From the IMG/VR virus record IMGVR_UViG_2851955134_000005: a DNA stretch of 46,544 nucleotides. One strand, written 5' to 3'. Shown in pieces: positions 43,215 to 43,916 of the stretch; the stretch's first letter is position 1, and every line of letters begins with the position of its first letter. Made by a program: the position numbers and the translations under genes. Source of the DNA: a virus. Its lineage: Duplodnaviria; Heunggongvirae; Uroviricota; Caudoviricetes. The notes below the pieces were generated by a model that searched no databases, had not been told where the DNA came from, and saw only the letters and a list, made by a program, of their open reading frames with translations.

Positions 43215-43517
43215 TTGGGTAGGATGAAAATGGATATAACACCTTTCCTTCATGCTCTTTGTGCTGTGGCTGCGCAGCTACTGATTGGTCTTTTTACCGG
43301 GAACTGGGCTTACGGAGCGATAGCCGGTTGTACGTTCTTCATTGCGCGTGAACACACCCAGGCAGAATATCGCTGGATTGAAATGTTCGGGCATGGCAAG
43401 CGTATGAATATGCCGTGGTGGGGCGGTTTTGATCCACGTGCATGGGATGTGGCAAGCCTGATGGATTTTGCTGTGCCGGTGGTGGCGTGTCTGCTGATCT
43501 GGATGTTGATCCGTTAA
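43215..43517 (+). CDS. small inner-membrane protein (start may be 43224 or 43230)
   Basis: Two hydrophobic segments; cargo position beyond the tail fibers. Confidence 0.45.
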   Translation: MGRMKMDITPFLHALCAVAAQLLIGLFTGNWAYGAIAGCTFFIAREHTQAEYRWIEMFGHGKRMNMPWWGGFDPRAWDVASLMDFAVPVVACLLIWMLIR

Positions 43518-43533
43518 ATATAAAAAGTAAAAA

Positions 43534-43567
43534 GCCGCAGTAACTTGTCATGATAGGATACTGCGGC
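43534..43567. terminator. hairpin between convergent genes
   Basis: GCCGCAGTA, 16-nt loop, TACTGCGGC. Confidence 0.3.
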
Positions 43568-43634
43568 TGGCTGGTTAACTTTCGATAGTGCGAGTATTGA
43601 ATGATTTCCAGCCGTTACCGATTTTACGTGTTAA

Positions 43635-43883
43635 TTAGTGAACAAACCACTCGTCAGCAGACTCCCAGGTATCTTTCAGAGTTTCCTGAACAAAAGTTTT
43701 AGCTGAATCTTTATCGGCGGTGCGCGTAACAGAAAGGCCATCGTTGCTGGTGGCTTTTACGATCACCTCTACATCGTCATAACGTTTACTGATGCGTCGG
43801 GTTAATTCTTCCTTTAACGCATCCACAGCACCGGTTGGCATTTTAGTCATTTTTTCTTTGGCTATGCAGATTTCAATACGCAT
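43635..43883 (-). CDS. dinI: DinI-like SOS-response modulator
   Basis: MRIE..IAK...P.GA.DAL..EL.RRI...........[13 protein letters not shown] parallels E. coli DinI. Confidence 0.8.
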
Positions 43884-43896
43884 AAAAGTCCCTCTA

Positions 43897-43916
43897 TACT
43901 GTGTTTGTATACAGTG
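43897..43916. promoter_or_regulatory. LexA box (SOS operator) upstream of the dinI-like gene
   Basis: TACTGTgtttgtatACAGTG fits CTGT-N8-ACAG. Confidence 0.6.

Follow-up and report, generated by a model that had tools for sequence, protein, structure and literature searches.

What does a DinI homologue do at the integrase end of a prophage, behind its own LexA box, and does it act together with the small membrane protein encoded convergently beside it? The initial annotation of this locus had taken the two genes for a single SOS-linked cargo and proposed that a phage-encoded DinI could damp RecA-mediated cleavage of the phage repressor and so tune induction, with the membrane protein as a potential exclusion factor. 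The DNA analysed here (46,544 nucleotides, referred to below as the window) is a segment of an E. coli chromosome with a prophage of ~43 kb inserted at dusA; the host lexA gene lies outside it. The prophage is lambdoid and mEp460-like, and the dinI cassette is located at its integrase end. The integrase gene (43945-45042, - strand), which encodes a tyrosine recombinase according to Pfam (Phage_integrase, 7.5e-21) and RefSeq, is directly upstream of the dinI-like gene, as had been reported, and adjoins dusA (45131-46168) across the interval 45043-45130. A fragment of dusA on the attL side, at ~1636-1740, was located from a 97%-identical block in strain 1517k.

Strain 1517k carries a closely related prophage and is 100% identical to the window over 851 nt; the blastn blocks common to both are confined to 1269-3554, 6590-15994 and 33304-46544. 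The 1517k prophage lacks any equivalent of the stretch at ~16000-33300, which holds genes for late regulation, lysis and the head, hence each of the two prophages is a mosaic relative to the other. The window begins within an IS1 insA gene (1-276, - strand), and just inside the attL end (1993-2981, + strand) it carries a gene for a Panacea-domain protein, annotated from the homologous block of 1517k, followed by an overlapping ORF of 139 aa, likely a toxin-antitoxin or defence pair.

Both ORFs of the region in question were found where they had been placed, at 43215-43517 (+) and 43635-43883 (-), and they are indeed convergent. The latter encodes a bona fide member of the DinI family, in agreement with the initial annotation: the 82-aa product matches Pfam PF06183 (DinI) over the whole domain (E=1.1e-19; 70.9 bits, where the cutoff is 24.2), phrog_189 ("RecA filament binding protein DinI", 5.7e-31) and the solved structures of DinI, 1GHH and 7YWA, over the full length (E=3.7e-13, residues 1-81 on 1-79). 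It shares 38 of 81 residues with K-12 DinI and scores 73 bits on the NCBIfam model NF007893, below the equivalog cutoff of 111 bits, which argues that it is a paralogue from a phage subfamily and not an orthologue of the chromosomal protein. In the cryo-EM structure 7YWA, DinI contacts RecA with a pocket comprising L13, L21, W71, W77 and F78, and with the acidic residues E24, E69 and D76. These align to M15, L23, W73, W79, F80, E26, D71 and E78 of the phage protein, with five of the eight positions identical and the remaining three conservatively replaced. Judging from these conserved contacts, the phage protein would be expected to bind RecA. Translation of the gene is probably directed by the Shine-Dalgarno sequence AGAGGGA (43889-43895, - strand), which is located 5 nt before the ATG and is kept in related loci.

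Upstream of the dinI-like gene we predict two LexA operators. The proximal one, TACTGTGTTTGTATACAGTG (43897-43916; 21.5 bits), is located over the predicted transcription start, 13 nt from the ATG at 43883; the 14 bp given earlier was thus essentially right. The single box that had been described is real, but a second, equally good one, AACTGTATGGATAAACAGTG (43925-43944; 21.3 bits), had been overlooked, 28 bp from the first, centre to centre. The scores come from a symmetrised matrix of 23 E. coli operators, among which only the K-12 dinI site was checked in sequence; on it the known operators reach 13.5-27.1 bits, with 22.3 for K-12 dinI, and shuffled windows give 0.18 hits of at least 14 bits per window. 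The window of 46.5 kb contains three copies of the motif CTGT-N8-ACAG, where 0.7 would be expected. As a sequence match the LexA box of the dinI-like gene is beyond chance, and LexA would be expected to bind at both operators.

The two operators are closely interwoven with a promoter that was found by promoter scan and is annotated in the same way, as a promoter feature, in the GenBank record of mEp460. Its layout is TTGACA-N17/18-TAAAAAT on the - strand. The -35 hexamer TTGACA (43943-43948) overlaps the TGA stop codon of the integrase gene (43945-43947) and forms the left boundary of the cassette, while the -10 element (43919-43925), which may be read as TAAAAA or AAAAAT, is weak. The distal LexA box takes up almost the whole spacer between them, and the proximal box is placed just after the -10 element. 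Double LexA operators, such as those of lexA, recN and the colicin genes, confer tighter repression and later induction.

At its other end the dinI-like transcript is closed by a terminator hairpin (43534-43567, - strand) with the arms GCCGCAGTA and TACTGCGGC. The 9-10-bp stem is GC-rich, folds as RNA with -30.1 kcal/mol (z=-4.3) and exhibits compensatory changes at four pairs among 14 phage copies. The hairpin is trailed on the - strand by UUUUUACUUUUU (43520-43533), and the + strand has no corresponding T-run. In the region 43518-43634 antiterminated late transcripts of the + strand probably read through the hairpin; such transcripts would be antisense to dinI and int and might shut dinI off at a late stage of the lytic cycle. 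The interval between the dinI-like stop codon (43635) and the hairpin holds no ORF. An antirepressor or irsA gene of the Gifsy type was sought downstream of the dinI-like gene and rejected, as no ORF fits and the terminator follows within ~100 nt.

The 3' untranslated region between the gene and the hairpin consists of an almost invariant element of ~60 nt (43568-43627, - strand), which appears to be an ancestral junction sequence. The element and the hairpin occur together without dinI in phage lambda (24190-24256, the ea47-ea31 interval; 1501-1567 of the extracted locus L084), in HK97 beside the annotated sib (1501-1568 of L085) and in PhiR11_1, and the element with its covarying hairpin, again without dinI, is also present in phage 21, in Rac and in Stx phages. 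Rfam returned no match for it. Such an element is a candidate terminator, recombination junction or small RNA. We considered a 3'-UTR small RNA similar to DinR, for which there is a precedent in Klebsiella, and rejected it: the element exists without dinI and has no Rfam match, covariation is limited to the terminator stem, and a convincing promoter of its own is missing. In identical genomes PGAP annotates a fragment of a "capsid protein" pseudogene with an internal stop at 43558-43638 (+ strand); this call on a conserved non-coding element is probably spurious.

Taken together, the sigma-70 promoter, two LexA operators, dinI-like gene and intrinsic terminator are a self-contained moron cassette. 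Since the 60-nt element and the hairpin are found without dinI, the mobile unit itself comprises only the promoter, the operators and the gene (43628-43948), inserted between the ancestral junction element and int. Its conservation was analysed in 80 viral contigs with a 99-100% identical protein, 56 of which reach 130 nt upstream (22 distinct sequences). Both LexA boxes are kept in all 56; in five of these loci the upstream DNA is unrelated and the homology starts exactly at the -35 hexamer. The diverged cassettes of PhiR12_1 and PhiR5_1 (81.6% and 74.4% DNA identity, respectively) likewise possess two boxes, identically placed at -60 and -32, and in each a terminator of its own comes straight after the stop codon. 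The present dinI allele is linked to the present integrase in 47 of 50 loci. The cassette has been found in 1813 of 5426 complete E. coli genomes, with up to seven copies per genome, as well as in mEp460, cdtI, 2H10 and many Stx1 and Stx2 phages, where it is usually annotated as DinI or DinI-like; at one Stx2a phage locus a simple filter gave no clean dinI ORF.

What such a cassette might do for a lysogen depends on how the prophage is induced. The prophage encodes a CI-type repressor of 208 aa (9223-9849, - strand) with an HTH_3 domain and a Peptidase_S24 domain (Pfam, 1.6e-27), in which VQAGQF holds the Ala-Gly cleavage site, GDSM the catalytic Ser and VKKL the Lys. With this domain and these motifs it is presumably a substrate of RecA*-dependent cleavage, and induction would be expected to proceed by RecA*-stimulated self-cleavage, which makes a damping of repressor cleavage by DinI mechanistically possible. 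DinI and lambda CI have been shown to use the same elements of the RecA groove, namely F203 of the L2 loop and a basic patch, and for this reason additional DinI-like protein should compete with CI and UmuD.

The best explanation of the cassette, to which we give about an even chance, is that it acts as an SOS-induced brake on the RecA-stimulated cleavage of the prophage CI, and of UmuD. In a resting lysogen, dimers of the host LexA on both operators would keep the dinI-like gene off. Upon DNA damage, RecA filaments formed on single-stranded DNA would trigger the self-cleavage of LexA and the gene would be transcribed. Its product would then bind in the filament groove, to the L2 loop and the basic patch, at the site used by UmuD and the repressors of the CI type, and additional copies of it would stabilize the filament while competing with these weakly binding substrates. 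The outcome would be a higher damage threshold for CI cleavage, or a delay, and less processing of UmuD, i.e. a negative feedback. Both the sign and the size of any effect of the dinI-like gene on induction are what we infer from these relationships. Against a strong effect stands the SOS-induced dinI that the host itself possesses, beside which the phage copy may amount to no more than extra dosage; the weak -10 element also speaks against the brake. The literature that we consulted (outside Yasuda 1998 and Galkin 2011) contains no direct data on DinI and the cleavage of any phage CI, and in the EHEC transcriptome papers the chromosomal dinI alone is reported. The idea of a brake has already appeared in print, as a speculation for Stx2a phages.

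The closest experimental precedent comes from Salmonella, where the dinI genes of the Gifsy prophages are controlled by LexA and nalidixic acid induces them 4.6- to 23-fold (Lemire et al. 2011). Non-polar deletions of the dinI homologues carried by Gifsy-1 and Gifsy-3 did not significantly alter induction, with the caveat that in these phages induction is driven by antirepressors and not by repressor cleavage. The unchanged induction speaks for another explanation, which we regard as unlikely but worth serious attention: that the cassette is cargo beneficial to the host, which mainly restrains SOS toxicity and the processing of UmuD or otherwise helps the damaged lysogen to survive, for instance under quinolones, and has no meaningful effect on induction. 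A prophage DinI-like gene has been found among the groups associated with emerging quinolone-resistance mutations in E. coli, in a study that is correlative; and a cassette so widespread, with as many copies per genome and in phages of different immunity types, is what would be expected of a dosage-type accessory gene. The function is, however, already supplied by the chromosomal dinI, and the tight linkage of the cassette to phage ends, not to the chromosome, suggests that the benefit goes to the phage.

The effect on induction could also be of the opposite sign. At moderate levels DinI reportedly does not block the cleavage of LexA. Combined with the observation of the 7YWA study that RecA filaments are lengthened and stabilized by DinI, this means that the net effect could be neutral or pro-induction: under strong SOS, stabilized filaments would prolong the RecA* signal and promote the cleavage of CI, in a positive feedback. 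The two operators, which would limit expression to strong or sustained SOS, are compatible with such a role. DinI nevertheless occupies the very groove elements that CI uses, and filaments coated with it should have little co-protease activity towards weak substrates, for which reason we find positive feedback improbable.

Another line of thought starts from a phage gene in the early-right (nin) region, flanked by a PerC-like gene and by rusA (12597-12923, + strand). It encodes 108 aa that comprise only a LexA-type DNA-binding domain (Pfam LexA_DNA_bind, 3.7e-19; match to 1LEA at ~3e-16, more exactly 2.8e-16), without the S24 cleavage or dimerisation domain, and its recognition helix RSvNAAvEHLrAL is nearly identical to RSPNAAEEHLKAL of LexA. 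Phage records that encode the protein number 61; of the 60 that were listed, at least 22 are also among the matches of the dinI cassette. This similarity and co-occurrence would fit the boxes upstream of dinI being chiefly operators for the phage protein, so that the gene would be under developmental control instead of, or besides, control by the host LexA. Common descent would be enough to explain the co-occurrence, though, the dimerisation domain of LexA is missing from the protein, and the dinI cassette is present in many phages that are not listed with it; the proposal is therefore a poor prospect.

A third LexA-like box, TACTGTAAAAATAAACAGTG (17193-17212; 22.5 bits), falls within codons 3-9 of a late-region gene for a Dam-like N6 DNA methylase (17185-18237, + strand) in the interval between the Q antiterminator and holin genes. 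It is kept in phiP27, in Yersinia phage vB_YenS-P840 and in Klebsiella phage 48ST307 at 67-81% DNA identity; a coding constraint (NTVKINS) may account in part for the persistence of the box. One may imagine an SOS-box regulon run by the prophage, in which the uncleavable LexA-domain protein, made from the early-right operon after induction, would bind the boxes of dinI, of the methylase gene and possibly of host SOS genes and, after the lytic decision, would silence the RecA brake and the host SOS response again, independently of RecA*. The LexA-domain protein and the methylase box allow a circuit of this kind and do not establish it, and we hold it to be a long shot. The brake on repressor cleavage, with host LexA at both operators, is the explanation that we retain for the cassette.

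The gene convergent with dinI has a different affiliation. It is predicted to encode a small inner-membrane protein of 95 aa (43230-43517, + strand, from the RefSeq ATG at 43230; alternative starts are at 43215 and 43224). The protein matches phrog_1443 (4e-58) and gave no match in Pfam, NCBIfam or PADLOC; PADLOC returned none for the DinI-like protein, either. The initial annotation had described it as a two-helix protein, and the AF2 model (pLDDT 91.9) has three helices instead, at residues 4-23, 26-53 and 74-94; no informative fold match to this model was obtained. All of its 566 homologues are annotated as "hypothetical", and the family is unusually well conserved, with ~60% identity from E. 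coli to Comamonas and Aeromonas, and with 25 invariant columns in an alignment of 33 sequences, among them D2, H8, R40, E41, E46, Y47, R48, W49, R58, D68 and D79.

The matrix scan revealed no LexA box at this gene, and the promoter scan no + strand promoter for it. In PhiR55_1, mEp460_4F5 and PhiR40_1 the homology starts at its ribosome-binding site (43221), behind tail-fibre genes that differ from one another. In P2/HP1-like prophages of Leclercia and Aeromonas salmonicida the start codon of the homologue overlaps the stop codon of the tail-fibre gene, which indicates that the two are translationally coupled there. A Comamonas prophage has the homologue after gpJ, with umuDC-like genes nearby, and the Aeromonas rivipollensis homologue lies on the chromosome, away from any obvious prophage. 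The homologues compared occupy positions 5001-5297 of locus L095, 5001-5300 of L096, 6001-6303 of L090 and 6001-6309 of L091. That the membrane protein and the DinI-like protein make up one functional SOS-linked cargo unit is suggested solely by the adjacency and convergence of their genes in the window and in 164 E. coli genomes, and is very hard to believe of a membrane-protein gene that adjoins the present dinI allele in no more than 13 of 79 loci, is found in PhiR11_1 where dinI is absent, has no LexA box and is coupled to tail-fibre genes elsewhere; the earlier view of an SOS-linked pair is not supported, and the distribution of the gene largely refutes it.

The membrane-protein gene is a tail-fibre-linked accessory gene, separate from the SOS cassette, and our best guess is that its product is a late-expressed accessory protein of the inner membrane which travels with tail-fibre genes. 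Genes for receptor blocking or exclusion are known beside receptor-binding genes, as in the case of Cor, Llp of phage T5 and gp15 of HK97, and a role in exclusion is possible by analogy. The membrane protein resembles these in being a small envelope protein encoded beside tail-fibre genes; it differs from them in the lack of sequence or fold similarity, in its unusual conservation and in its additional occurrence in a chromosomal context outside prophages. Comparison with the described families of superinfection exclusion and defence proteins likewise gave no match in sequence or fold, and the strong conservation of the family argues against a protein engaged in an arms race.

If the brake is real, the prophage copies of dinI would set the threshold of DNA damage for the induction of lambdoid prophages, including those that encode Stx, and the release of toxin under antibiotics would be affected; the cassette is present in about one third of complete E. 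coli genomes. The architecture with two operators is a useful detail for the design of a test of the brake.

Much of this was already known: the gene, its family, the control of homologous prophage genes by LexA and the hypothesis of a brake can be found in databases or in the literature, and the dinI-like sequence is identical to genes annotated as "DinI-like family protein" in public genomes. Chromosomal DinI of E. coli (b1061; 1GHH, 7YWA) has in common with the phage protein the family, the length, the RecA-contact pocket with the acidic residues and the control by a LexA box, whereas the phage cassette has two operators instead of one, a mobile location in a prophage and a different 3' untranslated region. 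The dinI-antirepressor-irsA operon of Salmonella Gifsy-1, -2 and -3 (Lemire et al. 2011) also contains a prophage dinI whose promoter carries a LexA box; unlike it, the present cassette lacks the antirepressor and irsA genes, has two boxes instead of one and resides in a prophage with a cleavable S24 repressor. Tum of coliphage 186 is another LexA-controlled phage protein with a DinI-like sequence, in its C-terminal half, but it comprises 146 aa with an N-terminal antirepressor part, in contrast to the 82-aa protein described here, which is a DinI domain alone. Two SOS boxes at one promoter are shared with lexA, recN and the colicin genes, and the layout of the present double operator, with 28 bp between the centres, one box in the promoter spacer and the other at +1, is its own. 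The cassette is therefore no new kind of system, being of the same kind as the LexA-controlled dinI genes of Salmonella prophages and as the chromosomal dinI.
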